64,000 nucleotides of DNA from NCBI GenBank assembly GCA_964541455.1, contig CAZIPS010000002.1:6326-70325 (forward strand), read 5' to 3'. The position numbers and the translations under genes were made by a program. This stretch comes from an uncultured Candidatus Saccharibacteria bacterium. GTDB taxonomy: Bacteria; Patescibacteriota; Minisyncoccia; Phycocordibacterales; JAKFXT01. Shown piece after piece: positions 1,650-59,094 of the stretch. How positions within the stretch are numbered: position 1 is the first letter of the stretch; each line of letters opens with the position of its first letter. Under the pieces are notes generated by a model. That model saw only the letters and a program-made list of their open reading frames with translations. It had not been told where the DNA came from and made no database searches.

Positions 1650-1678
1650 TTGCTAAAAGTAGTTTTTTGTTATATAAT
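1650..1678 (+). promoter_or_regulatory. sigma70-like promoter TTGCTA-N17-TATAAT upstream of GC-rich cassette 1
   Basis: TTGCTA at 1650-1655, 17-nt spacer, TATAAT at 1673-1678; spacer contains AGTTTTTTG; 22/29 positions identical to the module at 19618-19646. Confidence 0.4.
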
Positions 1679-1736
1679 AAAGTTCGGTAAGTTTTTTCGA
1701 TTAATTTTTTTGGCCTATGGGCCGAGGAGGTATGGG

Positions 1737-2039
1737 ATGTACAATCCCGACAATGCCAATCCCGACAGGGATACGACCCCGATTGCTCACGTGGAGCGGC
1801 TGGGGGACATCATCCACAGCATGCTCGGGGCGAGGATTGTGTATCGCCCTTGGCAGCTCGCAGGACCTTCTGAGCAGAACGAAATCCTGCTGCAGAAGGC
1901 AGGCGAAATCTGCGTGGTCACCGTGAAAGCGGGAGATCGCCGGCAGGCTTTCGAGGTGAGCAACCTCGGGGCGCAGTTCCTGGCGCTGGTGAAGGTCCTG
2001 AGCCACCAGACCGGGTTCGAGTACCGCGAAGTATTCTGA
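1737..2039 (+). CDS. hypothetical protein, GC-rich cassette 1 (100 aa, MYNPDNANPDRDTTPIAHVERLGDIIHSML...)
   Basis: ATG at 1737 lies 6 nt after GAGGAGG (1724-1730); about 60% GC in a roughly 40% GC neighbourhood; stop lies 16 nt before a hairpin terminator; no family recognised. Confidence 0.55.
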   Translation: MYNPDNANPDRDTTPIAHVERLGDIIHSMLGARIVYRPWQLAGPSEQNEILLQKAGEICVVTVKAGDRRQAFEVSNLGAQFLALVKVLSHQTGFEYREVF

Positions 2040-2054
2040 GGCGGTACTCGGGCG

Positions 2055-2086
2055 AGCGTGCGCAGCGATGCGCACGCTTTTTTTAT
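2055..2086 (+). terminator. intrinsic terminator of cassette 1
   Basis: 9-bp GC stem AGCGTGCGC/GCGCACGCT with 6-nt loop, followed by TTTTTTTATTT; the T-run overlaps the cysS stop codon. Confidence 0.6.
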
Positions 2087-3459
2087 TTCTTACTAACTTT
2101 TACTCCGTCCGGAGTATCATCGATATGATAGCCAAGGTTTGCTATTTCGGTGCGAAGCATGTCAGAGCGGGCAAAGTCTTTCTTTTCGCGCGCCACCTCA
2201 CGTTCTTTGAGAAGGTTTTGTACGGCAATGGGGATTTCAATACTTTCTTCCTCTATTTTTTCATCAAGTCGTAATCCAAGCACTTCATCGAATTTTAAAA
2301 TAGTTGCTTTCTTGTCGGCATCAGTAATGTCTGATTTCAAGACTTCAAATATAAGCGCAAGCGCTTGCGGGGTTCCCAAGTCATCGTTAATGAAAGAAGT
2401 GAATTGGTTGAGGAAATTACTATCTACTTTTCCATCCTCTGGCATCTGCCATAGTGCACGAATAATATTTTTCCTAGCGATACCAGCTGCATTTACTGCC
2501 TCCCAGCTAAAATTCATTGGACTTCTATAGTGAGTGGTGAGTAGTAAGTAACGGTAGACAAGTGGGACATCTCCCTTTTGTACAAAATCTACTAGCGTAA
2601 TAAAGTTCTCACCACTTTTTGCCATTTTATCCTCACCAACGTTTAGATGGGCATTGTGAAGCCAGTAGTTTACATATTTTTTATCATTGGCTTTTTCTGA
2701 TTGGGCAATCTCGTTATTGTGATGTACTGGGATATGGTCGATGCCACCAGTATGAATATCGAATGGTTGTCCTAGGTATTTTTCACTCATAGCAGAACAC
2801 TCTATGTGCCACCCCGGAAACCCTTTACCCCACGGAGCATCATAGCCAAGTTCGGCATTAAATTTCCAAAGGGCGAAGTCGCGCGGGTTTTTCTTTTCAG
2901 CGTTTAGTCCAATACGAGAATGTTCATCATTAGTACTTACTGCACCACCAAGCTCACCGTATGAGGGGAAGCTTTGGGTGTCAAAATATACCCCATCGCT
3001 TGTTGTGTAGGTAGCACCTTTGTCCACTAGCTTTTGAATAAGTTCGATATCTTCTTTGATATGGTCACTTGCAAAAGGGAAGTGGTGAGGTGTCTCAATA
3101 TTTAGTTGTTGTAAGTCTTCCTTAAATTTTTCAAAATAAAAATTGGCTATTTCGCGCATGGCTTCAAGCGTCATGGGTTTACCTTCACGTTTTAGTGCAC
3201 GGGTCATTTTATCATCGCCATCATCCCCATCACTTGAAAGATGTCCTATATCAGTAACATTTATTACTTGAGTTACTTTGTAAGTGTTGAACTCAAGGGT
3301 ACGGCGAAGTATGTCAGCAAACACATAAGCCCTTAGGTTACCAATGTGGGCATAATTGTAGACGGTGGGGCCACAGTTATACATACGCACTTCACCTTCT
3401 TTTATGGGGACAAACTCCTCCTTTTGCTTGGTAAGGGTATTATAGAAAAAAAGCTTCAT
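2083..3459 (-). CDS. cysS: cysteinyl-tRNA synthetase
   Basis: 458 aa; class I HIGH motif (YAHIGNLRAY) and KMSKS (KMAKSGENF); CysRS-like fold throughout. Confidence 0.9.
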   Translation of the reverse strand: MKLFFYNTLTKQKEEFVPIKEGEVRMYNCGPTVYNYAHIGNLRAYVFADILRRTLEFNTYKVTQVINVTDIGHLSSDGDDGDDKMTRALKREGKPMTLEAMREIANFYFEKFKEDLQQLNIETPHHFPFASDHIKEDIELIQKLVDKGATYTTSDGVYFDTQSFPSYGELGGAVSTNDEHSRIGLNAEKKNPRDFALWKFNAELGYDAPWGKGFPGWHIECSAMSEKYLGQPFDIHTGGIDHIPVHHNNEIAQSEKANDKKYVNYWLHNAHLNVGEDKMAKSGENFITLVDFVQKGDVPLVYRYLLLTTHYRSPMNFSWEAVNAAGIARKNIIRALWQMPEDGKVDSNFLNQFTSFINDDLGTPQALALIFEVLKSDITDADKKATILKFDEVLGLRLDEKIEEESIEIPIAVQNLLKEREVAREKKDFARSDMLRTEIANLGYHIDDTPDGVKVSKK

Positions 3460-3496
3460 GCTCTAGAGTGTATCTTAAAACAGTAACCTTGCACAA

Positions 3497-4411
3497 CTAG
3501 AGCCAATTCTTGTGTTTAAAGTAGGTAAACATAAGAATAGTGATACCTATCATAATGCCGATAATCTCGAAAAATCCATACGGACTCCCCACAATAGGGG
3601 TGATGGTGGTATTCATACCAAACACTCCTGCGATTAAGGAAAGAGGGAGCATGATGAATGAGATAAGCGCTAAGACCCGCATAGTTTCGTTCTGTTTAGT
3701 TGAAAGGAGGGAGTCGTTTGTTGCACGAAGCTCATTTAAAGTGTCAGTATTTGCTTCAATAGCGCTCTGTACCCGCGAATAAGAGCCAAGGATAGCTTGT
3801 ATGTAGTAGTTAAAATCTTCGCCAAAAAATTTACGTACAGCAAGTTCAAGTGAGGCGAGCACTTCATCGTGTAGTGAGAGTGATTGCTTGAATTGCAAAA
3901 TTTCCCGCGCGACTTTGGAGAGTTCAAAGACCATCTGGCGTTCATTGCCTAAGAAAATACGGTTCTCAATAATCTTAAGGCGATCGGTGACATAGTCGAG
4001 TTCATGAGTGAGTGACTTATATAGTTTCTTGATCATGTGGAAGAAAATGAAGCCCGCATGGTCGCCTAAACTTTCTTTTTCGAGGATCGTGTTTACTTCA
4101 AATACTTTGCCGAATTTATGTAGGGCATCTATTGAGTCGTAGTGGGTAGTAATCAGAAAATTTTTACCAATGACAAAGTCGATCTCCTGATTTTGGTCAT
4201 CGCCATGGGAATGATGGAGGGCGGGGAAGTGGAGGATAAGGTAGATATAGTCTTTGTAGAGATCAACTTTTGGTTTGAGGCTCGGGGTCATAAGGTCTTC
4301 TGCGACGCGCGGATCAAGAGCATAGCGGCCCATGAGTGTACGCACCTCTTCAAGTGAAGGAGAGGTGAGGTCGATCCATGTTAAATCTTTATTTTTGTAC
4401 TCTTTAATCAT
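3497..4411 (-). CDS. corA: CorA-family magnesium/cobalt transporter
   Basis: 304 aa; C-terminal two TM helices with the GMN motif (VFGMNTT). Confidence 0.8.
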   Translation of the reverse strand: MIKEYKNKDLTWIDLTSPSLEEVRTLMGRYALDPRVAEDLMTPSLKPKVDLYKDYIYLILHFPALHHSHGDDQNQEIDFVIGKNFLITTHYDSIDALHKFGKVFEVNTILEKESLGDHAGFIFFHMIKKLYKSLTHELDYVTDRLKIIENRIFLGNERQMVFELSKVAREILQFKQSLSLHDEVLASLELAVRKFFGEDFNYYIQAILGSYSRVQSAIEANTDTLNELRATNDSLLSTKQNETMRVLALISFIMLPLSLIAGVFGMNTTITPIVGSPYGFFEIIGIMIGITILMFTYFKHKNWL

Positions 4412-4505
4412 CCGTGTAATGTAGTGTTCTACCCATTATATAGAAGGAGCTTCTTGTTGGTAAAGGGACTGTTCTGTATAATGCGCTATATCTTTTCTTT
4501 TTTTC

Positions 4506-5780: not shown

Positions 5781-5846
5781 TGAGGCGTGACAGGACTACC
5801 TGAATAAGGTAGTATCCTCTTATTATTATCTTTACGTACATTCACT

Positions 5847-6290: not shown

Positions 6291-6311
6291 GAATAGACAA
6301 AAAAAATGTAA

Positions 6312-6345
6312 CAAAAACCCTCTGTGTACAGAGGGTTTTTGTTTT
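6312..6345. terminator. bidirectional intrinsic terminator between rplI and rpmA
   Basis: AAAACCCTCTGTGTACAGAGGGTTTTT palindrome with A-run before and T-run after. Confidence 0.6.
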
Positions 6346-6350
6346 AGAGC

Positions 6351-6623
6351 TTATTTTACGTGAGCTACTTTTTTGAGGATGGTTTTGCCGTCAAAGTGTG
6401 TCTTGCGAGTAGTGCCATAGGAAACAGTTCCTTCTTTGAGTGCATAAAGCGTATGGTCTTTTCCAATACCCACATTTAAGCCAGGAAGGATGCGTGTGCC
6501 ACGTTGGCGGATGATAATAGCACCAGCCTTTGCTTTTTCGCCAGCATAAAGTTTAGTACCCAAATACTGGGCGTTTGAGTCTGTCAGGTTTTTGGCGGAA
6601 CCTCCCGCTTTTCGTGTTGCCAT
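6351..6623 (-). CDS. rpmA: 50S ribosomal protein L27
   Basis: 90 aa; [22 protein letters not shown] matches the L27 N-terminal signature. Confidence 0.9.
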
Positions 6624-6700
6624 ACGTTAGTTTTGTAGTCGGCTAGGAGTGGTTTATAGTTATAAGAGGAATTAGGTAATTCCAGACCATCCCAGCAACA

Positions 6701-7177
6701 ATGGAGACAACTATAAAGGAAAGTAGGAAAAATAGCAAGGTACCCTTTGGGGAAAGTTTGCTTTTGACCAATAAGCCAAAAAATGGCTTAACAGCAGGCT
6801 TTTTGAGGGTTTCTGAGGAGGTGTATATCGCCCTTATTATCACCTTGGTGGCTTTTTTAGGGTTTGGCCTTGGGAGATTTTCGATGGTGCAAAAAAGCAG
6901 TAGTAAGACCCAAGTCAAGCTTATTCAGGGAGGGGGAGGGGAAGCAGCCCTTGTGGCAGATAAAGGTGTTTCTGTGGTGGATACGGGGACTACAGGAGGG
7001 GAGGTGTCCACTACTACGCTTAGCGCAACAGAAGTGGTGGCTTCAAAGCAGGGGACAAAATATCACTACACATGGTGCCCCGGGGCGTCTAAGATAAGCC
7101 CAAGTAACAAAATTTCTTTTACTTCTGAGGCTGCTGCGATTGTCGCAGGGTATACGAAAGCAAGTAACTGCAAATAA
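6701..7177 (+). CDS. membrane-anchored protein with C-terminal Ada-like Zn-binding-type Cys motif domain
   Basis: 158 aa; one TM helix; Gly/Thr-rich linker; C-terminal YHYTWCPG...NKISFTSEAAAIVAGYTKASNC resembles the Ada N-terminal metal-binding pattern (C-x3-C...F.S..EA..AG(F/Y)..C..C); the N-terminal start is uncertain. Confidence 0.5.
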   Translation: METTIKESRKNSKVPFGESLLLTNKPKNGLTAGFLRVSEEVYIALIITLVAFLGFGLGRFSMVQKSSSKTQVKLIQGGGGEAALVADKGVSVVDTGTTGGEVSTTTLSATEVVASKQGTKYHYTWCPGASKISPSNKISFTSEAAAIVAGYTKASNCK

Positions 7178-8186: not shown

Positions 8187-8258
8187 CGGGGTATAGTGTA
8201 TCGGTAACACACGTGCATGGGGTGCACGTAACGCTGGGTTCGACTCCCAGTACCCCGA
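8187..8258 (+). tRNA. tRNA-Pro (anticodon GGG)
   Basis: Manual fold: 7-bp acceptor CGGGGTA/TACCCCG (C1:G72, A73), D-arm GTGT/ACAC, anticodon stem CGTGC/GCACG with loop ATGGGGT (U33, GGG, G37), variable loop TAACG, T-arm CTGGG-TTCGACT-CCCAG; no encoded CCA. Confidence 0.8.
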
Positions 8259-8992: not shown

Positions 8993-9397
8993 GTGGGTAT
9001 GTTTGAGCGTATACTGCTCTTAACGCGTTCTTTTGGGTTGGCAAAACCACTGGGTCTTGCGCTTGCGAGGTGGGGAGTTGATAGCCTTGTGTACATTAGC
9101 GACCCAGCACTCTTTGAACCCAGCATTCTTGAAACGGAGGATTTCACTACTATTATTGTCGGTAAAAGTTTTCAAGGGGACTGCGAGGATACGGCTAAAT
9201 GGGTTCGCCACATTCGTTCACAGTATGGGAACCCAATCATTGGGGTGAATGATGTACTTAGCGTGTTTGGTGACATGCGTTTGCTTCGGGTAGCGGGATG
9301 TAACTATCTTTCTCAAACCGCGGATCCCAACATGCAATTACGAGAAGTTCTGGACTTTGTTTGGGAGATTGAATCAAACCTTCCACTTCTGCGCTAG
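8993..9397 (+). CDS. hypothetical protein (possible degenerate receiver-like fold)
   Basis: 134 aa; alternating beta/alpha pattern (RILLLT, LVYISDP, TIIVGKS, IIGVND) but no phospho-acceptor Asp; no confident family. Confidence 0.45.
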   Translation: MGMFERILLLTRSFGLAKPLGLALARWGVDSLVYISDPALFEPSILETEDFTTIIVGKSFQGDCEDTAKWVRHIRSQYGNPIIGVNDVLSVFGDMRLLRVAGCNYLSQTADPNMQLREVLDFVWEIESNLPLLR

Positions 9398-9405
9398 CAT
9401 CTCTT

Positions 9406-9437
9406 ACCCCCGCCTTAGGCGGGGGTCGTCTTTTGTG
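9406..9437 (+). terminator. intrinsic terminator
   Basis: ACCCCCGCC-TTAG-GCGGGGGT stem-loop followed by CGTCTTTTGTG. Confidence 0.6.
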
Positions 9438-9464
9438 GGAACCTCTAATGGTATACTTTTCTTC

Positions 9465-9983
9465 ATGGCATATACAAAAAAGGTAGCAAAGAAGGGGCTA
9501 AAAGCTACAGGATATTGGCTCATGAAATCAGAGCCACATGAATACTCGTTTGAAGATTTAGAAAAGAGTAAAAACGGGGGGAGGTGGGATGGGGTACGGA
9601 ACTATCAGGCACGGAATTTCCTTCGGGATATGAAAATTGGCGATAAAGTCCTTTTTTACTACTCAAGCATAAAAATGCCCTTGATTGTGGGCACCGCCCT
9701 CATAAAAGGAGCTCCATACCCAGACCCCACACAGTTTGATAAAAAGAGCCCATATTATGACCCAAAAGCCACTAAGGAGCGTTTTATATGGGTTTCTAGG
9801 GATTTGGTACCTGTGGATAACTTTTTAAGCGCTAAGGAGGGTAGGGGAGTAACCCTTTCTGAACTCCGGACAAATAAGAAGCTTTCCGCTTTGAGGCTCC
9901 TAGCTCCTGGGAACCGGCTTTCGGTGATGCCGGTAAGCAAAGCCCACTATGAGGAGGTTTTGAGAATGGCCAAGGGCAAATAG
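9465..9983 (+). CDS. EVE (PUA-like) domain protein
   Basis: 172 aa from the internal Met; YWLMKSEPHEYSFEDL...WDGVRNYQARNFLRDMKIGDKVLFYYS is the EVE-domain signature; the upstream in-frame extension of the six-frame ORF has no homology. Confidence 0.75.
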   Translation: MAYTKKVAKKGLKATGYWLMKSEPHEYSFEDLEKSKNGGRWDGVRNYQARNFLRDMKIGDKVLFYYSSIKMPLIVGTALIKGAPYPDPTQFDKKSPYYDPKATKERFIWVSRDLVPVDNFLSAKEGRGVTLSELRTNKKLSALRLLAPGNRLSVMPVSKAHYEEVLRMAKGK

Positions 9984-10411: not shown

Positions 10412-10825
10412 GTGGTAAACAAGGATAAAACCCCAGTACGTTTACAAAAAAGCAAAACAGAAGTAGTGACAACTGCTAGTAGCACAGAAGAAACAGTTCG
10501 TGCTTACTTTGAGGATATTCCTCAACTTATAGAGGTTGCTCGCTGTGAGTCCCGTTTTCGCCAAACCGATAAAGATGGAAGCATCTTCCGTGGTGAAATG
10601 AATAACAAGGACGTGGGGGTGATGCAGATCAATGAGTTCTATCACGCCGACACTGCTAAAAAACTTGGGTTTGATATCTATACGCTTTCAGGAAATATGG
10701 CCTATGCTCGTTATATCTACGAGAAACAAGGTATAGCTCCGTGGAGCTCATCATTCCCATGTTGGAATAAAAAAGTTTCGCAAATCGAAGCTTTAGGAAA
10801 CGTAGAGCTTGCGCTCAACAAATAA
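10412..10825 (+). CDS. SLT-domain lytic transglycosylase (lysozyme-like), secreted
   Basis: Catalytic E-S ... GVMQIN motif (ARCESRFRQ...GVMQINEFYH); the six-frame start is GTG at 10412, but an in-frame signal peptide (RKLRANHWLILGIATGILLFISNTTNNSAEAA) lies upstream back to a stop at 10256 with no ATG/GTG/TTG, so the true start is probably non-canonical or there is an indel. Confidence 0.7.
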   Translation: MVNKDKTPVRLQKSKTEVVTTASSTEETVRAYFEDIPQLIEVARCESRFRQTDKDGSIFRGEMNNKDVGVMQINEFYHADTAKKLGFDIYTLSGNMAYARYIYEKQGIAPWSSSFPCWNKKVSQIEALGNVELALNK

Positions 10826-10834
10826 CATAAAACA

Positions 10835-10867
10835 AAACCGCTAGAAAATTCTAGCGGTTTTGTTTTT
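10835..10867 (+). terminator. intrinsic terminator
   Basis: AAACCGCTAG-AAAATT-CTAGCGGTTT followed by a T-run. Confidence 0.65.
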
Positions 10868-11213
10868 GAGAGAAGAAGGTGCGGAAGAAAGTAGGTGTAT
10901 AGGTAGAGGTGGGGAGTGTCTAATCTTACAAGGAGCTTCCTATGGATAATGTTCGCACAATATATCTTTTGCGAAAATAGCACAGAGGGTGGAAGGCGCT
11001 GTTTGAGTTATCCACTTCCCCCTCGATTGGAATTTTTTTGGTTGAAGTTGGCTGTTTGTTTGGCTTGTAATTATTTATTTAGTGGTACATAGGTACCACT
11101 TCCCCAGACTTTGAGCCAAAAGTTTTAAGCGCTTTCGATCAGCTGTTAATATTAAAAATGAGTACTTTTATTTTTCCCAAAAACAGGGGAGTCTCTCCCC
11201 TACTCCTTTGTAA

Positions 11214-11247
11214 AGTATAAAAAACAGGCAAGCCATTCGGCTTGCCT
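11214..11247 (-). terminator. intrinsic terminator of cassette 2
   Basis: AGGCAAGCC-ATTC-GGCTTGCCT hairpin; on the minus strand it is followed by TTTTTTAT; a second weaker hairpin GGGGAG-TCT-CTCCCC lies at 11184-11198. Confidence 0.6.
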
Positions 11248-11269: not shown

Positions 11270-11647
11270 TCACCTTCTTGTGCGCGTGGAGCCGTACTCC
11301 ATGGTGTCTTTGAGTAGGTTCCAAAGCAGCTCTTCCGCCCTTTCCATTTCTGGAAGCGTCGGGGAATCGGCGAGAGCGGCACGGAGCGTCCTAATGAGTG
11401 CCATGATGATCTCACTTCTTTCGTTTAACGTGGCGTTCCTAGGGATCTTCCCTACACGCTCCAGTTGTTCCTCGAAGACTGCGAGGGAATCACTTTCACC
11501 ACGCAGAATGATTGAATACATGACGATAAGTCTGCGTGCGTCTCGGTTGTCAGCGGGGACAGTTGTGTGGCCATCCTTTTTCCGGTGTAGCCTGAAAAGG
11601 GCTCCGGTGATGGTCTTGGCATGCTCTATGGTCATGCTCATGGACAT
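11270..11647 (-). CDS. hypothetical protein, GC-rich cassette 2 (125 aa, MSMSMTIEHAKTITGALFRLHRKKDGH...)
   Basis: Minus-strand ATG at 11647 preceded by AGGAG (6-nt spacing); GC-rich; terminator 22 nt past the stop; contains an R-x4-H dipeptide pattern (RKKDGH) but no confident family. Confidence 0.55.
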   Translation of the reverse strand: MSMSMTIEHAKTITGALFRLHRKKDGHTTVPADNRDARRLIVMYSIILRGESDSLAVFEEQLERVGKIPRNATLNERSEIIMALIRTLRAALADSPTLPEMERAEELLWNLLKDTMEYGSTRTRR

Positions 11648-11711
11648 AACGAACTCCTACAGTAAAGTGGGCTGCAGCTTTTATAACACAAAATAAAGGA
11701 AAATGAAGGGG

Positions 11712-18246: not shown

Positions 18247-18279
18247 ATTTTTAGTATAGCACGTGTGTGAGGACCCTTT

Positions 18280-19617: not shown

Positions 19618-19646
19618 TTGCTAAAATGGATTTTTTGTCCTATAGT
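19618..19646 (+). promoter_or_regulatory. sigma70-like promoter TTGCTA-N17-TATAGT upstream of GC-rich cassette 3
   Basis: TTGCTAAAA-TGG-ATTTTTTGT-CC-TATAGT; same module as 1650-1678; a GGCGCGA/TCGCGCC hairpin at 19672-19694 lies in the 5'UTR. Confidence 0.4.
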
Positions 19647-19714
19647 GAAATTTGCTGTAAATTTTGGAAGGCGCGACCAATAAAATTCGCGCCACCACGG
19701 AAAAGGAGGGCCGC

Positions 19715-19978
19715 ATGGCCGCTGAAAAGGGCTGTTGTTGGACGCAGGGCGACAATCGTTGTGTTACGCTCTGCGAGGATGGGCACTGCCCAGGGGGGGA
19801 CGTTTGCGTAACGTCCCAGAGGCACAACGTCAACCACGTCGTTGACTACCCCTACCAGATCCTCCAAAGGGTCATGGAAGAGGGGCGGCCGGGACAGAAG
19901 ACGAAACACAGGCATACTGGGACGGGCGACGGAGACCGTTCTGTCTGGCAGGTGGGCGTCCCTGAAGCTTCATCGTGA
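19715..19978 (+). CDS. hypothetical Cys-rich small protein, GC-rich cassette 3 (87 aa, MAAEKGCCWTQGDNRCVTLCEDGHCPGGDVCVT...)
   Basis: ATG at 19715 lies 5 nt after AAGGAGG; 7 Cys in the first 32 residues; no signal peptide; GC-rich; terminator directly after the stop. Confidence 0.5.
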   Translation: MAAEKGCCWTQGDNRCVTLCEDGHCPGGDVCVTSQRHNVNHVVDYPYQILQRVMEEGRPGQKTKHRHTGTGDGDRSVWQVGVPEASS

Positions 19979-19993
19979 ATGCCCTTCGGGCAA

Positions 19994-20022
19994 GGCTGCG
20001 TACCCCGCAGCCTTTTTTATTA
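19994..20022 (+). terminator. intrinsic terminator of cassette 3
   Basis: GGCTGCG-TACCC-CGCAGCC followed by TTTTTTATTATTT; the T-run abuts the aspS stop codon. Confidence 0.6.
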
Positions 20023-37011: not shown

Positions 37012-38241
37012 TTACGCTTTATTTTCTGGGTACATTTCAGGGAGGGCTTCTTTCGCTGCCGCTGCAAAGCTAGCACTTATAGCTAGGATTGTATCAAACC
37101 GAATATCAAGACTGAAGCTCACAGAATCAGCTAAAAGAGCTGTGTCAACTAAGCTGACGCGAAATCCATTTGGTACAAGGGTTTGGCTTGCAAAGCCGTG
37201 GGCGGCGCTGATTTCTGAAAAAATATCCTTAAGATCGGTATCAACGAGGAGATACAAATCAGGTGGTACCGAAGTTTCTTCGGTGAGACTAATGAGCGAG
37301 CGTTCCAGGTACGCCAACCATTCGGCTTGTGCTTCTTTGATAAATGGTTCAAGTTTTGCCCGCTCTGGTTCAGCAAGCTTTTTATCATGATATAGTCCGA
37401 GTCGCGCAAGGGCGTCTTCGTTGGTAGTTCCCATTTTTTGTGCTATGTAGCGCACTAAAGAATATTTCCCATAAGGGAAAGATACTGTTTCAAGTAGTGT
37501 ATGGTTGCGCACAAGCGATACTTCGGATATTTCACTTCCAATAGTCATAAAAAGAAAATCAGCTTCTGCGTCAACGCGGTTGCGTAGGGCAATAAAAGCA
37601 GCAAGAGAAAGTGGCTCAACCGACACGTGGGCAGGGGTAAACTTTCTTACTGTTGAAACAAGACTTTGTATGATGACTGGGTCAATAGAGGTTCGGAAGG
37701 CTGACACAGTGACGTCAGTACTTGTTTTCCCGTAAGGATTGCTTACGTGGTATCCATTTATTTTTATATCAATAATGCGTTCATGCACGGTTGCACCATT
37801 CTCTCCCACGAGCTCAATTTCGTGTGCTGGGAGGGTATTTTTTTTCTCAACTTTAAGGAGTGAATCAATAAAATGAGGTGAAATTGAGAACTCTTTCTCA
37901 CTTTTATGATGAATGAGGGTGGTATGGGAGAGGTAGTATGGAGCAGCCAAAATGCAATACACTTCGTCGGCCGCGAGGAGCATATCTTTAGAATTTGTTT
38001 TGTCTAATATGCGTGCAATATGATCAAGTACTTGCTCCAAGGATGAAAGCGCGGTGGTAAGTGTGTCCTTTTGATCACCATCACTTATGTTCTGCTCACC
38101 AAGTACGGTGTAGAGAATATAGGGTTTGCCATCACGCATTTCAACCACCGCTCCACGAGAGTTACCTCTCCCGATATCAAGATACAGTACAAGTTTAAGT
38201 GGCACTGTCTTTGGTAAGTGCAAAAAAGAAAAAAGACCCAT
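37012..38241 (-). CDS. hypothetical protein, possibly actin-fold ATPase (FtsA/PilM-like)
   Basis: 409 aa; N-terminal LVLYLDIGRGNSRGAVVEM resembles the phosphate-1 loop of actin-like ATPases; weak. Confidence 0.35.
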   Translation of the reverse strand: MGLFSFLHLPKTVPLKLVLYLDIGRGNSRGAVVEMRDGKPYILYTVLGEQNISDGDQKDTLTTALSSLEQVLDHIARILDKTNSKDMLLAADEVYCILAAPYYLSHTTLIHHKSEKEFSISPHFIDSLLKVEKKNTLPAHEIELVGENGATVHERIIDIKINGYHVSNPYGKTSTDVTVSAFRTSIDPVIIQSLVSTVRKFTPAHVSVEPLSLAAFIALRNRVDAEADFLFMTIGSEISEVSLVRNHTLLETVSFPYGKYSLVRYIAQKMGTTNEDALARLGLYHDKKLAEPERAKLEPFIKEAQAEWLAYLERSLISLTEETSVPPDLYLLVDTDLKDIFSEISAAHGFASQTLVPNGFRVSLVDTALLADSVSFSLDIRFDTILAISASFAAAAKEALPEMYPENKA

Positions 38242-38314
38242 GTGTGAATTATAACAGAGGAAGCTTCGAGCTTGTAGCTTTTAGCTGTTAGTAGAATAAA
38301 AAGATGGTGGTTTA

Positions 38315-40069
38315 CTATTTCAACACGGCTTTGATTCTTCTTACGCCAGCCGACACAGCTTCTTCCTTTTGAATACTAAAATTTCCTAAATCTTTGGTGT
38401 TTGTTACGTGAGGGCCGCCACAAAATTCTAAACTAAAGTCACCTATTTTATAGACACGAACCGTGTCGCCATATTTTTCTTCAAATAGACCAATTGCCCC
38501 CCTTGTTTCAGCCTCTTCTTTTGGGAGGTCTTCAAAGGTAACAGGAAGTCCAGCCTTAATCTGTTCATTTACCAACACCTCAACCGCCTTTTTTTGCTCG
38601 TCAGTCATTTTCTCAGGGTGGGCAAAGTCAAAACGAAGACGTTCTGTGGTGATATTGCTCCCCTTTTGGGCAACATGCTCGCCTAAAATTGTTTTGAGGG
38701 CCTTATGGAGTAAGTGTGTTGCCGTGTGATACTTCACAGACATTTCTGATGTATCAGCGAGTCCTCCCTTAAACTTTTTTTCAGCTCCGACTCGAGAAAG
38801 GGCTTGGTGTTTTTGCATCTCTTCCTTAAAACTTTCTTCATCAACTACCACTCCCCTTTCAGTTGCGAGCTCTTTGGTCATTTCAAAAGGAAATCCGTAA
38901 GTAGAAAAGAGTTTAAAAGCCTCTTTTCCAGTAATTTTACCTGTTGAAAGTTTTGTGAACTCTTTCATGCCTTCTGTGAGTGTTTTTCGAAAACGCTTTT
39001 CTTCTTCAAGGATTTCTTCTCTAATACTGTTACTTTGAGTTTCAAGGTTGGGATATACTTCTTTGTATTTTTGTACTACAGGTTCGACAAGGTGTGCTAT
39101 ATCCCCTTCTTTAAATTTAAGAATGTCAGCGTAGCGAATGGCGCGACGTAATAATCGACGCAAGATGTAACCCTGGTCGGTGTTACTTGGATGCACTCCG
39201 TCCGCAATAAGGAAGACACTGGTGCGAATATGGTCAGCAACAATACGAATAGCCTTAACATCATGCTCTAGTGCAAAGTCTTCAATCTTTTGGATAAGGG
39301 GTTCAAAGATATCAGTGTCGTAGGCGGTTTTTTTTCGTTGCATAACGGCAGTGATACGTTCTAGTCCCGCTCCGGTGTCTACGTTTTGTTGTGTTAGTTT
39401 TCCAACCACCTGCCCTGCTTCCTTTTTGTATTCCATGAACACGTCATTCCATATCTCAATAACATCTTCTCGTTTCATGGCGGCAAGAAAGTCTTCTTTG
39501 TTGAGGTCTCCCAGACCTTTTTCTGTCATGTCATAAAACATTTCAGTATCTGGTCCACATGGCCCATTGTCCCCTGGGCTCCACCAATTATCCTCCGCCG
39601 GAAGAAAATAAATGCGAGATTCTGGAATGCCAAGTGACTTCCAGACAGCGGGAGCCTCTTCATCTCTTGGGGCATTTTGGTCCCCCTCAAAAACGGTGAC
39701 ATACAATTTTTGTGGATTTAGACCCAACCCCTCTTCTTTTGAAGTGAGAAACTCAAAACTCCAGGTTATAGCCTCTTTTTTGAAATAATCACCAAGTGAC
39801 CAATTTCCCATCATTTCAAAAAATGAAAAATGGCGGTTGTCTCCAATGTCCTCAAGATCACCAGTGCGGACACATTTTTGGACATTAGCTAAGCGAGTGC
39901 CTTGTGGGTGTTTAGCCCCTAAAAGGTAGGGTACTAAGGGTTGCATGCCAGCTGTGTTAAAAAGGACCGAGGGGTCATTTTCCGGTACAAGGGAGGCCGA
40001 AGGCACAATGGCATGCCCTCTTTTTTCAAAGAAGGTAAGGAATCGCCTACGAATTTCGTTTGAAAGCAT
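38315..40069 (-). CDS. alaS: alanyl-tRNA synthetase, short form lacking the C-terminal C-Ala domain
   Basis: 584 aa; AlaRS N-terminal catalytic signature (RRRFLTFFEKRGHAIVPSASLVPENDPSVLFNTAGM) and editing-domain HxxxH...CxxxH (HTATHLLH ... CGGPH). Confidence 0.85.
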   Translation of the reverse strand: MLSNEIRRRFLTFFEKRGHAIVPSASLVPENDPSVLFNTAGMQPLVPYLLGAKHPQGTRLANVQKCVRTGDLEDIGDNRHFSFFEMMGNWSLGDYFKKEAITWSFEFLTSKEEGLGLNPQKLYVTVFEGDQNAPRDEEAPAVWKSLGIPESRIYFLPAEDNWWSPGDNGPCGPDTEMFYDMTEKGLGDLNKEDFLAAMKREDVIEIWNDVFMEYKKEAGQVVGKLTQQNVDTGAGLERITAVMQRKKTAYDTDIFEPLIQKIEDFALEHDVKAIRIVADHIRTSVFLIADGVHPSNTDQGYILRRLLRRAIRYADILKFKEGDIAHLVEPVVQKYKEVYPNLETQSNSIREEILEEEKRFRKTLTEGMKEFTKLSTGKITGKEAFKLFSTYGFPFEMTKELATERGVVVDEESFKEEMQKHQALSRVGAEKKFKGGLADTSEMSVKYHTATHLLHKALKTILGEHVAQKGSNITTERLRFDFAHPEKMTDEQKKAVEVLVNEQIKAGLPVTFEDLPKEEAETRGAIGLFEEKYGDTVRVYKIGDFSLEFCGGPHVTNTKDLGNFSIQKEEAVSAGVRRIKAVLK

Positions 40070-41270: not shown

Positions 41271-41273
41271 TAA

Positions 41274-41305
41274 AAGTAGTATAGCAAAATATAAAACCCG
41301 TCTTC
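41274..41305 (-). terminator. intrinsic terminator of cassette 4
   Basis: AACCCGTC-TTCAC-GACGGGTT hairpin followed (minus strand) by TTTTATATTTTGC. Confidence 0.55.
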
Positions 41306-41341
41306 ACGACGGGTTCCCTGCGGGGCAGGCAGCCTTGGCGC

Positions 41342-41509
41342 TTAGCTGGCGCGGGTATGCCTTTTCTGGTAGCCACCGTGAGGGGCAGGCAGCCCCCCTG
41401 GCGGCGGGTCGCGCGCCTTTGGCGCGGGCGTGGATTCAAACAGAAATACTGGCCCAGAGAATGCTACGTTAAGTACTGTCTCGATGAGGCAGTACATGAG
41501 ATGTTTCAT
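41342..41509 (-). CDS. hypothetical small protein, GC-rich cassette 4 (55 aa, MKHLMYCLIETVLNVAFSGPVFLFESTPAPKARDPPPGGLPAPHGGYQKRHTRAS)
   Basis: Below the ORF-track size cutoff; found by hand: minus-strand ATG at 41509 lies 7 nt after AGGAGG; hydrophobic N-terminal half, Pro/Gly-rich basic C-terminus; terminator 37 nt after the stop; contains the direct repeat GGGGCAGGCAGCC twice. Confidence 0.4.
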   Translation of the reverse strand: MKHLMYCLIETVLNVAFSGPVFLFESTPAPKARDPPPGGLPAPHGGYQKRHTRAS

Positions 41510-41544
41510 GGTCGCTGCCTCCTCTTGTTTGCAAAACTAAAAAA

Positions 41545-43984: not shown

Positions 43985-44168
43985 GTTGTATAGTATACCA
44001 CCACTACTCGTGAATTTGGTCGGTTATAAAAATATAGTGCCCAAAGCCATACAACCGGCCTCGGGCACTGTCGCAGAGGTACTACATCGCTTCCATCGCT
44101 AGACGGATCTCCTCTCCTTTCTTAAAGAGTGATGGGAGTGCCACTTTAATATAAGAAAATACTTTTGT

Positions 44169-54187: not shown

Positions 54188-54197
54188 ATAAGTTTTA

Positions 54198-55034: not shown

Positions 55035-55046
55035 AGGTAAATATGT

Positions 55047-56144
55047 TTATATTTTAAATTCTATAACATCTCCATCTTTTACAATATATTCCTTTCCTTC
55101 AGTGCGAAGTATGCCCTTAGCCTTGGCTTCGGCGTAGGAACCAGCAGAAAGTAATTTGTCCCACTCTATAACTTCTGCGCGTATAAACTTTTCTTTAAAG
55201 TCGTTGTGTATAGCCGTTCCTGCAATAGGAGCAGTACTTCCTTTTTTTATTGTCCACGCTCGTGTCTCGTCTTCTCCTGTCGTGAAGTAGGTCATGAGAT
55301 TAAGGAGGGTGTAGCTCTTTTGTATAAGCTCATCGATACCGTCATTTTTATCATTAAGTTCTCCCTTAAACATTTCTTTCTCTTCGGGAGAAAAATCTTT
55401 GAGATCTTCTTGGATCTTGGCATCTATGACCACATATTCTGAGTGTTCAGCTTCTATGTAGTCGGTGAGCTGCTTAAAGCGTGCTAGGTCTGTCTCATCA
55501 AGATTTTTGGCTCCAGACTTCTTATTGAGTCCATAAATAATTGGCTTCTTAGAAAGAAGGTTCAATTGCTTTACGAAGGGGATCTCTTTTTCGGTTAGTT
55601 CGACTAATCGTGCGCTTTTCCCTGCATTAAGCGTCACTTTAATTCGCTGCAGCGCCCCCTCTTCAGTAATCGCGTCTTTATCCCCCTTTTTCACTTCTCG
55701 CACAAGGTTGCCTAGGCGTTTAGTAACAGTCTCAAGGTCAGCAAGAATAAGTTCAGTATTTATGATCTCTATATCGCGAATAGGATCTACTCCACCCTCA
55801 ACATGGATAACATTACTATCTTCGAAAATGCGCACCATGTGGAGTATGGCATCCGTCTCACGGATATTGGCTAGAAACTTATTTCCAAGTCCCTCGCCAG
55901 TCGAAGCTCCTTTTACAAGTCCTGCAATATCTACGAACTCAATAACTGCAGGAATAGTTTTCTTAGAATGTGAAAAGTTAGTTAACTTCTGTAGTCGCTC
56001 ATCGGGTACGGCAACAATGCCCACTGACGGATCAATGGTACAGAAGGGGTAGTTTTCTGCTGGCACTGACTTTTTAGTGAGTGCATTAAAAAGTGTGGAT
56101 TTCCCCACATTTGGTAGCCCCACAATTCCAATAGATAGTGACAT
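55047..56144 (-). CDS. ychF: ribosome-binding ATPase YchF
   Basis: 365 aa; G1 GLPNVGKST, YchF-specific NYPFCTIDP, C-terminal TGS domain. Confidence 0.9.
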   Translation of the reverse strand: MSLSIGIVGLPNVGKSTLFNALTKKSVPAENYPFCTIDPSVGIVAVPDERLQKLTNFSHSKKTIPAVIEFVDIAGLVKGASTGEGLGNKFLANIRETDAILHMVRIFEDSNVIHVEGGVDPIRDIEIINTELILADLETVTKRLGNLVREVKKGDKDAITEEGALQRIKVTLNAGKSARLVELTEKEIPFVKQLNLLSKKPIIYGLNKKSGAKNLDETDLARFKQLTDYIEAEHSEYVVIDAKIQEDLKDFSPEEKEMFKGELNDKNDGIDELIQKSYTLLNLMTYFTTGEDETRAWTIKKGSTAPIAGTAIHNDFKEKFIRAEVIEWDKLLSAGSYAEAKAKGILRTEGKEYIVKDGDVIEFKI

Positions 56145-56938
56145 TCGGCTATAATTATCTAATAATGACGAAAAAGCAAGAATATCTCTTATTTCTACTG
56201 TGGCCGTTTATCATTCTTGGCGTAAGTCTATTTCTTAAACCGGTTTTTTTTGAAACTATTTTTCTTTTCTATATTTTGCCAGCACTTTTTCTTTCATGGA
56301 AACTTCCTGGGCAAATAGTAAAAACTGCGCAATTGGCATTCGTTGGCTCCTTATTAGGGCTTATTTTCGATTATTCAGCGGAGGTTACTGCTACCTGGGT
56401 TTTCCCTCAAACGTATTTTTCATTTAAATTACTTGGTGTAACACCTATTGAAGTCCCACTTTGGTTTTTCTTTTGGACATATCTTGTAATTATGTTTTAT
56501 GAGTATTTCCTGGAACAAGATAAGAAGCGTGAAAAAATAGCATCATCGGCCAAAACCCTGTTATGGGTGGGCCTGGTAATCTATCTAACCTTTTACTTTC
56601 TAATTACGGTTTGGCGCATGCCGTTCGCTGTACCTTATACTTATCTCACCTTCGGTGTTTTGTACGCTTTTATCCCACTCGTATTAATGCTCTATTTTTA
56701 TCCTAAACTAAGAGCAAAGTTTTTAATTGTTATTGCTTACTTTTTCCTACATTCACTTGTCTACGAAATAGTTGGTCTCAGGTATGGTAGTTGGAGTTTT
56801 CCTGCCACAAGTCAATTTGTTGGTTGGATTCAATTATTTTCATTTAAATTTCCCTTTGAAGAGTTCTTTTTTTGGATAACAGTTGCTTCGGCAGGGATTC
56901 TTGCTTGGTATGAATTCTTTGACGACGATAGAAAGTAG
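56138..56938 (+). CDS. membrane protein with tandem lycopene-cyclase (CrtYcd-like) domains
   Basis: 266 aa; two repeats each with the PxE(E) motif (TPIEVPLWFFFW and FPFEEFFFW) and a TM pattern typical of CrtYcd. Confidence 0.55.
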   Translation: MTFGYNYLIMTKKQEYLLFLLWPFIILGVSLFLKPVFFETIFLFYILPALFLSWKLPGQIVKTAQLAFVGSLLGLIFDYSAEVTATWVFPQTYFSFKLLGVTPIEVPLWFFFWTYLVIMFYEYFLEQDKKREKIASSAKTLLWVGLVIYLTFYFLITVWRMPFAVPYTYLTFGVLYAFIPLVLMLYFYPKLRAKFLIVIAYFFLHSLVYEIVGLRYGSWSFPATSQFVGWIQLFSFKFPFEEFFFWITVASAGILAWYEFFDDDRK

Positions 56939-56941
56939 TTT

Positions 56942-56969
56942 ATAAAAAAACACCCCGCTTGCGCGGGGT
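56942..56969 (-). terminator. intrinsic terminator of cassette 5
   Basis: CCCCGC-TTGC-GCGGGG hairpin; on the minus strand it is followed by TTTTTTTATA. Confidence 0.55.
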
Positions 56970-56985
56970 AAGCGGGGGTGGCGGA

Positions 56986-57618
56986 TCAGCGTGGTGGCGC
57001 CAGAACAAGCCTGAGGAAATCCTCCATGGTATCGGCGATGAGGCAGCCCATCGCCTCAAGCTGCTCCTTGCTTGGAAAACCGCCGAGGCCGAACTGGGGT
57101 TGCCATTCGCACCCGACGATCACCTTGGGAGGAGGTTCGTCTTCGTTGTCCCGCAAGTTTTCCTTCCGAGCAAGCGCCGTCACGATGTGCAAAAAGTCAT
57201 CAGGGTTGGGCCGAAGGTGGTACTTGCCGGGGTTTTCGAAGTAGTGTGCTGTAAACCAGAAGAGAAAAGTATGGGAGAGTGCCAAGGAGAGCCGCACATT
57301 GCCTGCGTCCTCGATGTCCTTGCGCGGGTCATCATGAAGGAAAAAACTTCCCCGCTCGAGGCCAACGTCCACCACCCCCTTGAACCCAGACAGGGCCCGC
57401 AGGGCGTGATACTGCCATGGGACATGCGTTGGGTCATTGAGAGCATTGATCGGCCCACAAAGGGCCACGCTTCCAAATGCCGCCATGGCATGACTCGAAA
57501 CTAGGTCGAGCTCTTGATGCCTCCAGCGGTAGTGGCCAGTGAGATTGAGGCTCTGCCAGAACTTTTGTACAGCAGCAGCCTTTTCTTGCAACTCTTGCAA
57601 TTCTCCGGGAGCGAACAT
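56986..57618 (-). CDS. hypothetical protein, GC-rich cassette 5 (210 aa, MFAPGELQELQEKAAAVQKFWQSL...)
   Basis: Minus-strand ATG at 57618 preceded by AAGGAA; spans the whole 60%-GC island; terminator 17 nt after the stop; overlapping ORFs in other frames lack translation signals; no family recognised. Confidence 0.55.
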   Translation of the reverse strand: MFAPGELQELQEKAAAVQKFWQSLNLTGHYRWRHQELDLVSSHAMAAFGSVALCGPINALNDPTHVPWQYHALRALSGFKGVVDVGLERGSFFLHDDPRKDIEDAGNVRLSLALSHTFLFWFTAHYFENPGKYHLRPNPDDFLHIVTALARKENLRDNEDEPPPKVIVGCEWQPQFGLGGFPSKEQLEAMGCLIADTMEDFLRLVLAPPR

Positions 57619-57705
57619 CGCTAGTTTCCTTTCATGGGGTCATGGGGGTAATGGGGTACTAAAAGCGAGTTTCACAATAACACGCACTTTAATTTTATCA
57701 AAAAG

Positions 57706-58293: not shown

Positions 58294-58294
58294 G

Positions 58295-58522
58295 TTACTT
58301 TTGCATTAAAGAACTCAACTGCCCTTTGTATTCTTGGAGTACACTCATAACAGCCTGCATCTGTGGAGTACCTTGCTTCATTTTGGCTTCTACTTTTTTT
58401 CCAATTTCTGTAAAAAGTTCAGGATGCTGCTCTACTATATTTAAAATTTGTTCCTGCTGCGCTTCAGGAACTCCTTTCAGTTTACTTTTTATAAGACTGC
58501 GCATTAAGAAATTTTTTAGCAT
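58295..58522 (-). CDS. hypothetical small protein
   Basis: 75 aa; helical and charged; 1-nt gap to the oxidoreductase gene suggests co-transcription. Confidence 0.35.
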   Translation of the reverse strand: MLKNFLMRSLIKSKLKGVPEAQQEQILNIVEQHPELFTEIGKKVEAKMKQGTPQMQAVMSVLQEYKGQLSSLMQK

Positions 58523-58706
58523 GTGTGTATGTTAGCATCCCGTCTACTCCCGCACAATTTAGGAGAAGGTCGTAGTTATTAACAGGTGACTTTTCAAAAT
58601 GGATAAAATCTATTATACTCTACTTACAAGCTAAACTAGGTCGGAAAAATAGTTAGCTCGAAGTGTGTCTGTAACAAAAGGCTATCGAACTTTTGTAATA
58701 GACCGG

Positions 58707-58745
58707 CAAAAACCCGAAAGAAATATCTTTCGGGTTTTTGCTTTT
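58707..58745. terminator. bidirectional intrinsic terminator
   Basis: AAAAACCCGAAAGA-AATA-TCTTTCGGGTTTTTGCTTTT: 9-bp perfect stem flanked by an A-run and a T-run. Confidence 0.6.
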
Positions 58746-58781
58746 AAAATCAAAAAGGAGATAAGGCAGTAAATGCAAAAT

Positions 58782-58810
58782 TTGACTTTATATAATAAGT
58801 AAGTTATAAT
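58782..58810 (+). promoter_or_regulatory. consensus sigma70 promoter TTGACT-N17-TATAAT upstream of cassette 6
   Basis: TTGACT 58782-58787, 17-nt spacer, TATAAT 58805-58810; about 29 nt upstream of the cassette 6 ATG. Confidence 0.5.
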
Positions 58811-58839
58811 TATCCTCAGGCAATTTCAGGAGATTTTTT

Positions 58840-59055
58840 ATGGACTTTTGTCCAGCATGCGGTGGGCTTCTCAAGGAGACCCACCTCTCAGGAAACCTCT
58901 ACGGGTTTTCTCGGCGTGATGCATACAAGTGCAATGACTGCAGCCTTGTCTTGGCACGCGCTAACGGCGGGGCGGTACACTCGGTCACCCCCATCGCACC
59001 AAATGCGGTGGTGATCGAGGGGTACAAGTTGGGGCTCCGTCTCCCACAGGTTTAG
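58840..59055 (+). CDS. hypothetical zinc-ribbon small protein, GC-rich cassette 6 (71 aa)
   Basis: ATG at 58840 lies 7 nt after AGGAG; CPACGG ... CNDC (C-x2-C-x23-C-x2-C) zinc-ribbon pattern; GC-rich; terminator 6 nt after the stop. Confidence 0.55.
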   Translation: MDFCPACGGLLKETHLSGNLYGFSRRDAYKCNDCSLVLARANGGAVHSVTPIAPNAVVIEGYKLGLRLPQV

Positions 59056-59061
59056 TATCAC

Positions 59062-59094
59062 CCCGGGTCGGAAGACCCGGGTGTTTCTTTTTAT
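59062..59094 (+). terminator. intrinsic terminator of cassette 6
   Basis: CCCGGGTC-GGAA-GACCCGGG followed by TGTTTCTTTTTAT; overlaps the atpC stop codon. Confidence 0.6.

Follow-up and report, generated by a model that had tools for sequence, protein, structure and literature searches.

Six short G+C-rich units, here termed cassettes C1 to C6, lie singly and 1–21 kb apart between the housekeeping genes of a 64,000-nucleotide stretch of contig CAZIPS010000002.1 (assembly GCA_964541455.1; the window). Each carries one small open reading frame (ORF) that is preceded by a Shine-Dalgarno (SD) site and followed by an intrinsic terminator. Because the native genes around them are without SD sites and many are apparently leaderless, the cassettes appear to be a separate expression class, in that they have leaders and SD sites within a genome that is SD-free and partly leaderless. 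On balance we consider it somewhat probable that they represent six unrelated, lineage-restricted, moron-like accessory genes, which sit in conserved slots, derive from a GC-richer, SD-using gene pool and are exchanged with it. Set against known moron-like or ORFan islets, the combination of high GC, SD-led expression in an SD-free genome and conserved slots with ORF-precise replacement is unusual.

The host was placed by atpD, aspS and other proteins among Patescibacteria of the Paceibacteria/Parcubacteria type (Candidate Phyla Radiation, CPR), with best atpD matches of 78% to metagenome-assembled genomes (MAGs) labelled Nomurabacteria, Yonathbacteria and 'Patescibacteria group'. An earlier reading, made from the letters of the window alone (the sequence-only reading), had named the genes on either side of the cassettes. 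Its names were confirmed for dnaB and cysS (C1), scpA and aspS (C3), UDG and an ogt-like gene (C4), NQO (Flavodoxin_2; C5) and atpC (C6). Its 'SLT' and 'CrtYcd' found no Pfam match, the ORFs at 10412–10825 and 56138–56938 both being without one; an EVE domain was present in 9357–9983, the next gene upstream of 10412–10825.

Composition and expression signals

When GC content was profiled in 150-nt windows (mean 0.428, sd 0.05), the six segments were the six strongest islands of the window, peaking at 0.61–0.69. The seventh-ranked island sits within a ribosomal protein gene and peaks at 0.57. All six had been correctly located by the sequence-only reading, whose estimate of 58–62% GC was overstated for four of them: although GC-rich, the segments as it had delimited them measured, in order, 0.605, 0.530, 0.564, 0.523, 0.568 and 0.508. 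The cassette ORFs have a GC content of 0.53–0.60 and a third-codon-position GC (GC3) of 0.62–0.78, whereas 51 native genes display a GC content of 0.43 and a GC3 of 0.37±0.041, with a maximum of 0.48. Cassette GC3 therefore lies at least 6 sd over the native mean, or 25–40 points higher, and the cassettes are 10–17 points richer in G+C than the host genome. The excess over native composition is greatest at third codon positions, and codon preference is shifted to CTC/CTG over CTT, AAG over AAA and ATC over ATT, with GGG also favoured. GC content rises in a sharp step at the SD/ORF boundary; the promoter and 5′ untranslated region (5′UTR) parts of the same slots are AT-rich. This profiling, which had been proposed as a check, set both the composition and the codon usage of the cassettes apart from those of the 51 resident genes. 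Orientation differed as well: three of the six cassettes (C1, C3 and C6) lie on the + strand as opposed to roughly 8 of 64 native genes, the rest of the window being almost all − strand.

SD strength was scored as the predicted pairing to an E. coli-type anti-SD sequence, the 3′ end of the host 16S rRNA lying outside the window and the fetched loci. All six cassettes have an SD site 5–8 nt ahead of the start codon, as the sequence-only reading had observed, with pairing energies for C1 to C6 of −13.1, −6.8, −12.1, −12.0, −5.6 and −7.4 kcal/mol. In contrast, the 20 nt upstream of native genes (n=64) gave a mean of −0.3 kcal/mol with only 2 of 64 reaching −6, and a 4-nt SD core at the proper position was found in none of about 60 native genes. 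Even random 20-mers from the window pair more strongly (−2.4 kcal/mol on average), because the native upstream regions are G-poor (G fraction 0.11 versus 0.22). A good −10 box (TAnnnT) ends 4–10 nt before the start in 10 of 64 native genes, many of them heading an operon, compared with 1.8% at random positions. Taken together, the upstream regions of native genes indicate putatively leaderless mRNAs on a wide scale. Examples of such regions are found at 1551–1575, 18247–18270, 41271–41292 and 43985–44005. SD-poor, partly leaderless native genes fit the report that the anti-SD motif is absent in a Parcubacteria subgroup and detected in only 48% of Parcubacteria (PMC9297842).

Behind all six ORFs a GC-stemmed hairpin and T-run were found, as the sequence-only reading had described; the terminators lie 6–24 nt past the stop codon and have stems of 7–11 pairs, of which 5–7 are G-C. 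Four promoters at exactly 17-nt spacing had also been claimed. This spacing was seen for C1, C3 and C6, the C5 site is spaced by 16 nt, and the promoter scan returned no site for C2 or C4. Since promoter-like sites were at least as frequent in shuffled sequence as in the window, they are weak evidence alone. GC-stemmed terminators end native genes too (for example at 9406–9426, 6310–6343 and 44036–44069), and the TTGCTA-17-TATAGT promoter type recurs at 6710–6738 (− strand), just upstream of rpmA (6351–6623). What sets the cassettes apart is therefore not modularity but their composition, their codon usage and an SD site within a leader, and of the earlier claim that both modularity and composition are absent from native genes only the compositional half stands. 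Coordinates are collected in Table 1.

Table 1. Positions of the predicted signals and ORFs of the six cassettes (window coordinates; energies are predicted anti-SD pairing)
Cassette	Feature	Position	Strand	Remarks
C1	Promoter-like site TTGCTA-17-TATAAT	1650..1678	+	From promoter scan; hexamers and spacing same in sister genome
C1	SD GAGGAGG, 6 nt before ATG	1724..1730	+	−13.1 kcal/mol; GAGGAG kept in sister
C1	ORF, 100 aa, GC 0.60, GC3 0.78	1737..2039	+	Orphan
C1	Intrinsic terminator, 11-pair stem and T-run	2054..2086	+	Kept in sister with substitutions inside stem
C2	SD AGGAG, 6 nt before ATG	11654..11658	−	−6.8 kcal/mol
C2	ORF, 125 aa, GC 0.53, GC3 0.62	11270..11647	−	Public annotations also start at 121 aa
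C2	Intrinsic terminator, 9 pairs, 6 G-C, T-run	11217..11247	−	
C3	Promoter-like site TTGCTA-17-TATAGT	19618..19646	+	Nearly identical in strains L122 and L124
C3	SD AAGGAGG, 5 nt before ATG	19703..19709	+	−12.1 kcal/mol; ACAGGAG in diverged allele
C3	ORF, 87 aa, six Cys in first 31 residues, GC 0.60	19715..19978	+	
C3	Replaced segment (SD and ORF)	about 19687..19982	+	Minimum identity 0.43 per 100 nt
C3	Intrinsic terminator, GGCTGCG / CGCAGCC stem and T-run	19994..20018	+	Identical in L122 and L124
C4	SD GAGGAGG, 8 nt before ATG	41518..41524	−	−12.0 kcal/mol; SD region aligns with AAAGGAGG of sister
C4	ORF, 55 aa	41342..41509	−	Exact ORF not in public protein sets
C4	Intrinsic terminator	41285..41317	−	Kept in sister along with UDG promoter
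C5	Promoter-like site TTGATA-16-TATTGT, TG extension	57674..57701	−	
C5	Weak SD-like AAGGAA, 7 nt before ATG	57626..57631	−	−5.6 kcal/mol
C5	ORF, 210 aa, GC 0.57	56986..57618	−	Strict orphan
C5	Hypervariable mosaic patch of 135 nt, ORF nt 381–516	57103..57238	−	About 25% divergence and 1-nt deletion in 95%-ANI strain
C5	Intrinsic terminator, 8 pairs, 6 G-C, T-run	56943..56970	−	
C6	Promoter-like site TTGACT-17-TATAAT, 11/12 matches	58782..58810	+	
C6	SD AGGAG, 7 nt before ATG	58828..58832	+	−7.4 kcal/mol
C6	ORF, 71 aa, CxxC...CxxC, zinc-ribbon-like, GC 0.58	58840..59055	+	Weak zinc-ribbon matches
C6	Intrinsic terminator, 8 pairs, 7 G-C	59062..59091	+	

Conservation and turnover of the slots

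Textbook promoter, SD and terminator modules with a sharp compositional contrast are what a chimeric assembly, GC-rich contamination or engineered cassettes would present, and engineered expression units had been among the earlier suggestions. We regard the chance of any such artefact as next to nil. The exact C1, C2, C5 and C6 proteins, together with flanking proteins, were found on a 90,653-bp NCBI contig and on ENA, Logan and JGI contigs from other samples. The C1 and C5 junctions are covered by contigs with 100% identity to the window, and natural variants at 95–97% identity have C2, C3 and C5 at the same places, so that the junctions recur across many independent samples and assemblers. 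Diverged orthologues at the same loci of a sister genome, and the absence of plasmid or phage matches, likewise argue against an artefact. Because independent metagenome assemblies have the cassettes at the same loci, chimerism and engineering are excluded as far as the assemblies show, and the cassettes are natural. With the limits given in Table 1, the C3 and C4 proteins were not present in public protein sets.

The sister genome (GCA_964385825.1, a 372-kb contig), with which the C1, C2, C4, C5 and C6 slots were compared, runs collinear with the window (nucleotide identity about 75%), and synonymous sites in its core genes have reached saturation (proportion of synonymous differences, pS, 0.75–0.86). 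GC-rich, SD-led ORFs occupy the C1 and C6 loci and the C4 slot there too, and SD sites are kept in all orthologues and alleles compared. Since they are shared with a genome whose core genes are synonymously saturated, the C1, C6 and C4 slots are shown to be old, as judged from these alignments, and the recent acquisition that the sequence-only reading had offered as one option fails for at least these three. That reading had also stated that the same ORFs at the same loci with native composition would speak against a foreign origin. For C1 and C6 the loci are indeed the same, but the orthologues are GC-rich too.

C1 and its sister orthologue are 83% identical in amino-acid sequence, and their differences are distributed 8/9/33 over codon positions 1/2/3 (omega about 0.13). 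On this codon-level evidence we take C1 to be protein-coding; a start at 1717 had been assumed before, but the ATG there belongs to another frame. At conserved residues 71% of C1 codons are identical between the two genomes versus 50% expected at saturation, whereas the flanking genes have 47–49% identical codons versus 40% expected. The synonymous sites of C1 are thus clearly less diverged than those of its flanks, which points to either later inter-lineage exchange or synonymous constraint. Between the dnaB and C1 promoters (1575–1650) lies a purine-rich tract with G-runs (GGGGG, GGGG x4, GGG), which could form a + strand G-quadruplex.

The C6 orthologue at the same position in the sister is only 32% identical (BLASTP E 1e-7, z 8.8 versus shuffles), with both CxxC pairs kept. 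C6 is GC-rich in both genomes (0.58 here, 0.56 in the sister) with a GC3 of 0.60–0.67 in both, and it is likewise judged to be protein-coding. The sister record leaves the C6-like ORF uncalled; gene finders call such islands inconsistently.

In strain L124, at 95% average nucleotide identity (ANI), the SD site and ORF of C3 are exchanged for an anciently diverged allele, and the promoter, 5′UTR hairpin and terminator remain 95–100% identical. The alternative allele encodes 96 aa with the same six-Cys pattern and has kept its frame through indels. Overall pS between the alleles is 0.75 (saturated), and omega in the N-terminal domain is 0.07; despite the saturated synonymous sites both alleles have a GC content of 0.60–0.62. 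The strain alignment shows an ORF-limited replacement of C3, and by the same comparison C3 is protein-coding. The strong purifying selection that acts on C1, and in C3 on the Cys-rich domain, shows that at least these two encode working proteins. Within the species the deepest divergence dips fall on cassettes. In three relatives with an aspS identity of 77–80%, the aspS|scpA gap contains a GH18 gene or another ORF, and GC islands are absent; a metagenome scan with aspS returned distant relatives only.

C2 and C5 vary by presence and absence. Strain L121 has a C2 copy of 98.7% identity, in which 5 differences were counted, 2 of them synonymous and 2 non-synonymous. The sister lacks C2 at this locus and has another gene of 373 aa behind a conserved hairpin. 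This hairpin, AGGGGAGTCTCTCCCCT, is located at 11185–11201 of the window, and in the sister (L093 19360–19760) it directly abuts that gene. The non-coding gap before the C2 terminator is unusually long (about 400 nt, 10826–11225), and the most divergent stretch of strain L121 corresponds to window positions 10696–11019. C5 is called by several annotation pipelines and is probably protein-coding; its inter-strain differences are even over codon positions, and it is frameshifted in one strain. It is absent from the sister, which has a 363-aa gene of ordinary composition between NQO and ychF. The precise insertion between core genes that had been described for the cassettes is thus borne out only in part, as the gaps in relatives are not empty but hold the GH18, 363-aa and 373-aa genes. 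We considered diversity-generating retroelements (DGRs) as a source of the C3 and C5 variable regions. By inspection the mismatches span all bases and codon positions and many are synonymous, as is typical of long divergence, and the mutual comparison of the six units gave no internal repeat, which makes this source unlikely, although a reverse transcriptase was not searched for.

The sister C4 slot holds a GC-rich, SD-led ORF of 146 aa that displays no significant similarity to C4, the promoter/SD region and the terminator alone being alignable. The C4 transcript is predicted to be more stably folded than its shuffled counterparts (z −3.7). When C4 was assessed as a type I toxin, its N-terminal hydropathy was borderline (KD19 1.55) and its SD was able to pair inside a hairpin; neither an antisense promoter nor a homologue was found. 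The 13-nt sequence GGGGCAGGCAGCC (coding strand GGCTGCCTGCCCC) is directly repeated, with one copy at 41381–41393, towards the 3′ end of the C4 ORF, and the other at 41311–41323 in the 3′UTR, just ahead of the terminator; the repeat may reflect a small duplication or chance.

GC-rich DNA has few stop codons, so the ORFs might be accidental and the islands foreign GC-rich scraps or structured non-coding RNAs rather than genes, an alternative to which we attach hardly any weight. It would accommodate the overlapping ORFs on both strands of every island, the short, publicly uncalled and comparatively well-folded C4, the even mismatch distribution and frameshifted variant of C5, and the low confidence of the AF2 models, which were unreliable for both C1 (pLDDT 54, small alpha/beta fold predicted) and C5 (pLDDT 38). 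It is contradicted by the codon-level purifying selection on C1 and C3, by the conserved metal-binding Cys pairs of C6 and by well-spaced SD sites in all six cassettes and their orthologues. Pfam searches of the antisense ORFs of every island gave no match, and the sole Rfam match in the window was tRNA-Pro at 8187–8258, with none in the cassettes. Folding of the C3 transcript is unremarkable (z −1.9 versus shuffles), and with no Rfam match the structured-RNA reading was rejected.

Origin of the cassettes and comparison with known systems

None of the six proteins matched a family in Pfam, PHROGs, PADLOC or NCBIfam, and the earlier statement that they cannot be placed holds for all databases searched. 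A word-indexed search of 5.8e9 proteins returned only the own lineage, for C1 with the addition of the sister and for C5 confined to its own 90% cluster; exhaustive HMMER searching of 1.84e9 cluster representatives with C5 again recovered its own cluster only. There was no match in a PDB sequence search with C2, C3 and C6, in IMG/VR scans with all six, or in tblastn searches of GenBank phages (C1, C2 and C5) and PLSDB plasmids (C1, C2, C3 and C5). A phmmer comparison of all cassettes and alleles with the complete ORF set of the fetched Patescibacteria loci (1.68 Mb) recovered strain and sister copies alone. A C-terminal likeness of C5 to a GC-rich atp-adjoining ORF in L080 ('TMEDFL') was not significant (E 0.05), and no clear membrane segment was seen in the six proteins. 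When the six units and their flanks were compared with one another by blastn and blastp, only chance matches of 11–20 nt appeared. Because both DNA and protein similarity are absent, the six units are not one family, and the family of mini-genes that the sequence-only reading had envisaged is not upheld. Its impression of a foreign-like character is sustained, composition, codon usage and translation signals all differing from those of resident genes.

In the reading that we favour, each unit would be an autonomous leadered transcription unit, made up of a sigma-70-type promoter, an SD-bearing 5′UTR, a small ORF and an intrinsic terminator in an inter-operon slot. Slots and control regions would be old and vertically inherited, and the coding content would turn over. 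Turnover could take four forms. C1 would diverge slowly under purifying selection and C6 to an extreme degree; alleles of C3, and probably the content of the C4 slot, would be replaced with ORF precision by recombination between lineages through the conserved flanks of promoter and terminator; and C2 and C5 would be gained or lost. Reused slots, ORF-limited replacement and gain or loss are together suggestive of continuing homologous recombination through the control regions. Ultimately the genes would have arrived by horizontal transfer out of a pool that is richer in GC and uses SD sites, for instance mobile elements or other Patescibacteria. Their products may serve in conflict or partner interaction, with immunity, anti-defence or effector-like roles, as accessory genes that are small, dimorphic and quick to turn over usually do; the dispersed set of small conflict-type proteins already raised by the sequence-only reading is still a live option.

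Several observations weigh against this account. No donor or homologue outside the clade was found in any database searched, so that composition and signals are all that carries the horizontal origin. C3 and C6 retain high GC and GC3 though their synonymous sites are saturated, unlike a fading foreign signature, and such persistence requires either continued residence in a GC-rich pool or an in-place force. A cassette promoter type is found ahead of rpmA as well. In addition, the coding evidence for C2 is thin, and C4 is doubtful as a gene, being the least secure of the six and maybe the shortened remnant of a longer one.

Some of these points would equally be expected of a special class of native genes, in which in-place selection for mRNA stability or a regulated SD channel keeps GC, structured leaders and SD sites without any transfer. 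The synteny of C1, C6 and the C4 slot in the sister, high GC3 that persists through synonymous saturation, SD sites retained in all orthologues and alleles, the promoter type in common with a native-type site and the missing donor are all in keeping with it. We nonetheless judge a native class to be rather unlikely. It does not readily account for the anciently diverged, ORF-limited C3 allele in near-identical flanks, for the presence/absence variation of C2 and C5 or for the non-homologous content of the C4 slot. Relatives with 34–38% GC lack GC islands in the regions compared, and no known selection pushes synonymous sites 25–40 points over the genome.

GC-biased gene conversion (gBGC) at hot-spot slots could also raise the GC and GC3 of ordinary, fast-evolving accessory genes as a by-product of recombination. 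Its effects amount to a few percentage points. The GC rise in the cassettes is largest at third positions, and C3, C5 and C1 bear signs of exchange, in line with such a process. Recombinant genes have a higher GC3 in most bacteria examined, as a correlation across genes (10.1101/011023). Such reported effects are cross-gene correlations, however, whereas cassette GC3 is 25–40 points higher; the sharp GC step at the SD/ORF edge next to AT-rich promoter and 5′UTR sequence speaks against conversion, and the SD sites are left unexplained. Gene conversion could therefore contribute, but as the main cause it is argued against and very unlikely.

The cassettes are best likened to phage morons ('more DNA' of the HK97/HK022 type), which are defined as independent units with their own promoter and terminator and a GC content unlike that of their neighbours (PMC3594210). 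As in morons, single-gene units are set in a conserved gene order and deviate in GC from the surrounding genes; at the level of sequence, promoter-like sites of their own were seen for C1, C3, C5 and C6 and predicted terminators for all six. With respect to addition between adjacent genes, the C2 and C5 gaps hold other genes in the sister and the C1, C6 and C4 slots are occupied in both genomes. Unlike morons, the cassettes reside in a cellular chromosome, with cellular core neighbours and no PHROG, IMG/VR or GenBank-phage match, several are old, vertically inherited units, and slots are reused with different ORFs.

Acquired ORFans and single-gene islets are similarly lineage-restricted, without homologues, atypical in composition and variable in presence. 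Daubin et al. reportedly found in 2003 that acquired genes and ORFans are usually A+T-richer than the host genome. The cassettes differ in being G+C-richer, in using another initiation signal than the host genes and in keeping their composition through saturation. Patescibacteria are described as having many acquired regions, mostly with genes of unknown function (PMC12455944).

Integron cassettes resemble the present units in their small, mostly orphan ORFs, deviant composition, exchangeability and 3′ hairpin. In contrast, the units described here are dispersed singly, have their own promoters, display no mutual similarity and end in hairpins that are T-run terminators. No tandem array beside an integrase and attI was seen, although no scan aimed at intI was made, and the units are not bracketed by GTTRRRY / RYYYAAC pairs of the attC kind or by any common motif. 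Common sequence or terminal repeats, as in miniature inverted-repeat or insertion sequence (MITE-/IS-like) elements, were equally lacking, and PADLOC models of known anti-phage defence gave no match.

Anciently diverged allelic cassette loci under balancing or diversifying selection are familiar from pherotype, bacteriocin/immunity and antigen loci. C3 and the C5 patch are comparable in that old alleles are confined to one short gene within near-identical flanks, but no toxin, receptor or kinase partner adjoins any cassette. SD-poor bacteria such as Bacteroidota retain rare SD-led genes, which are conserved housekeeping or regulatory genes. The likeness lies in a genome that avoids SD sites while a few genes have strong ones; here, in contrast, these are orphan, GC-rich accessory genes.

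The sister genome contains additional GC-rich islands outside the window-equivalent region (L093 746–936, 3156–3600, 3729–4224 and 6868–7509; L099 4688–5042). Their ORFs, located upstream of dnaB and the atp operon, encode 72, 67, 83, 140, 121, 115 and 179 aa without Pfam domains. This suggests roughly one such unit per 5–10 kb in the clade. The sister also has an extra 174-aa Cys-rich, AT-rich ORF between alaS and the next gene (L111 6176–6700), where the window has 73 nt only (38241–38315); therefore not every gene-content difference is a GC-rich cassette. ORFs of a similar kind, GC-rich, SD-led and terminator-capped, adjoin the atp operon of unrelated Patescibacteria MAGs (L080 11423–12025; L040 12547–13071; L077 11919–12164 and 12993–13238; L065 13521–13721), which suggests that such units are not confined to this clade. 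A weak match to Pro_CA_2 (28.6 bits versus a cutoff of 30) marks the one in L040 as a putative carbonic anhydrase, so some such islands are not orphans.

A bolder proposal, which we regard as distinctly unlikely, is an integrase-free, dispersed slot-and-cassette system in which fixed control modules between core genes, namely a promoter with its 5′UTR hairpin and a terminator hairpin, anchor the swapping of unrelated GC-rich ORFs among Paceibacteria. If true, an ultra-small symbiont would thereby have a fast-diversifying set of small proteins, effectors or immunity factors, made through an SD-dependent channel of their own while initiation in the cell is otherwise leaderless and SD-free. In its extreme version, universal sigma-70 promoters, strong SD sites and GC-rich codons could suit the units to expression by a GC-richer partner organism or to exchange with it.

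CPR/Patescibacteria are thought to be symbionts of other microbes, yet very few proteins are known to mediate this way of life; the cassettes offer a sharply defined candidate class, recognizable by composition and translation signals. They would also place two tiers of expression in one genome, a leaderless, SD-free core and leadered, SD-dependent accessory genes. This bears on why some Parcubacteria lost the anti-SD motif and on what uses it where it is kept (PMC9297842). The persistence of GC3 through saturation and the SD/ORF-exact replacement are unusual population-genetic signatures.

A candidate small RNA beside C6

Just upstream of the C6 promoter, at 58591–58745 (+ strand), a candidate small RNA with a promoter-like site (TTTTCA-17-TATACT) was noticed. 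The predicted transcript (58622–58745, about 124 nt) folds into three hairpins, the last of which is the terminator, with a minimum free energy of −48.3 kcal/mol (z −8.8 versus shuffles). It reached no Rfam family at gathering score (best His_leader, 31.8 bits versus 49), and of the fetched loci only those from this species and the sister contained it. The candidate is about 96% identical to its sister counterpart, compared with 73–79% for the neighbouring coding DNA.

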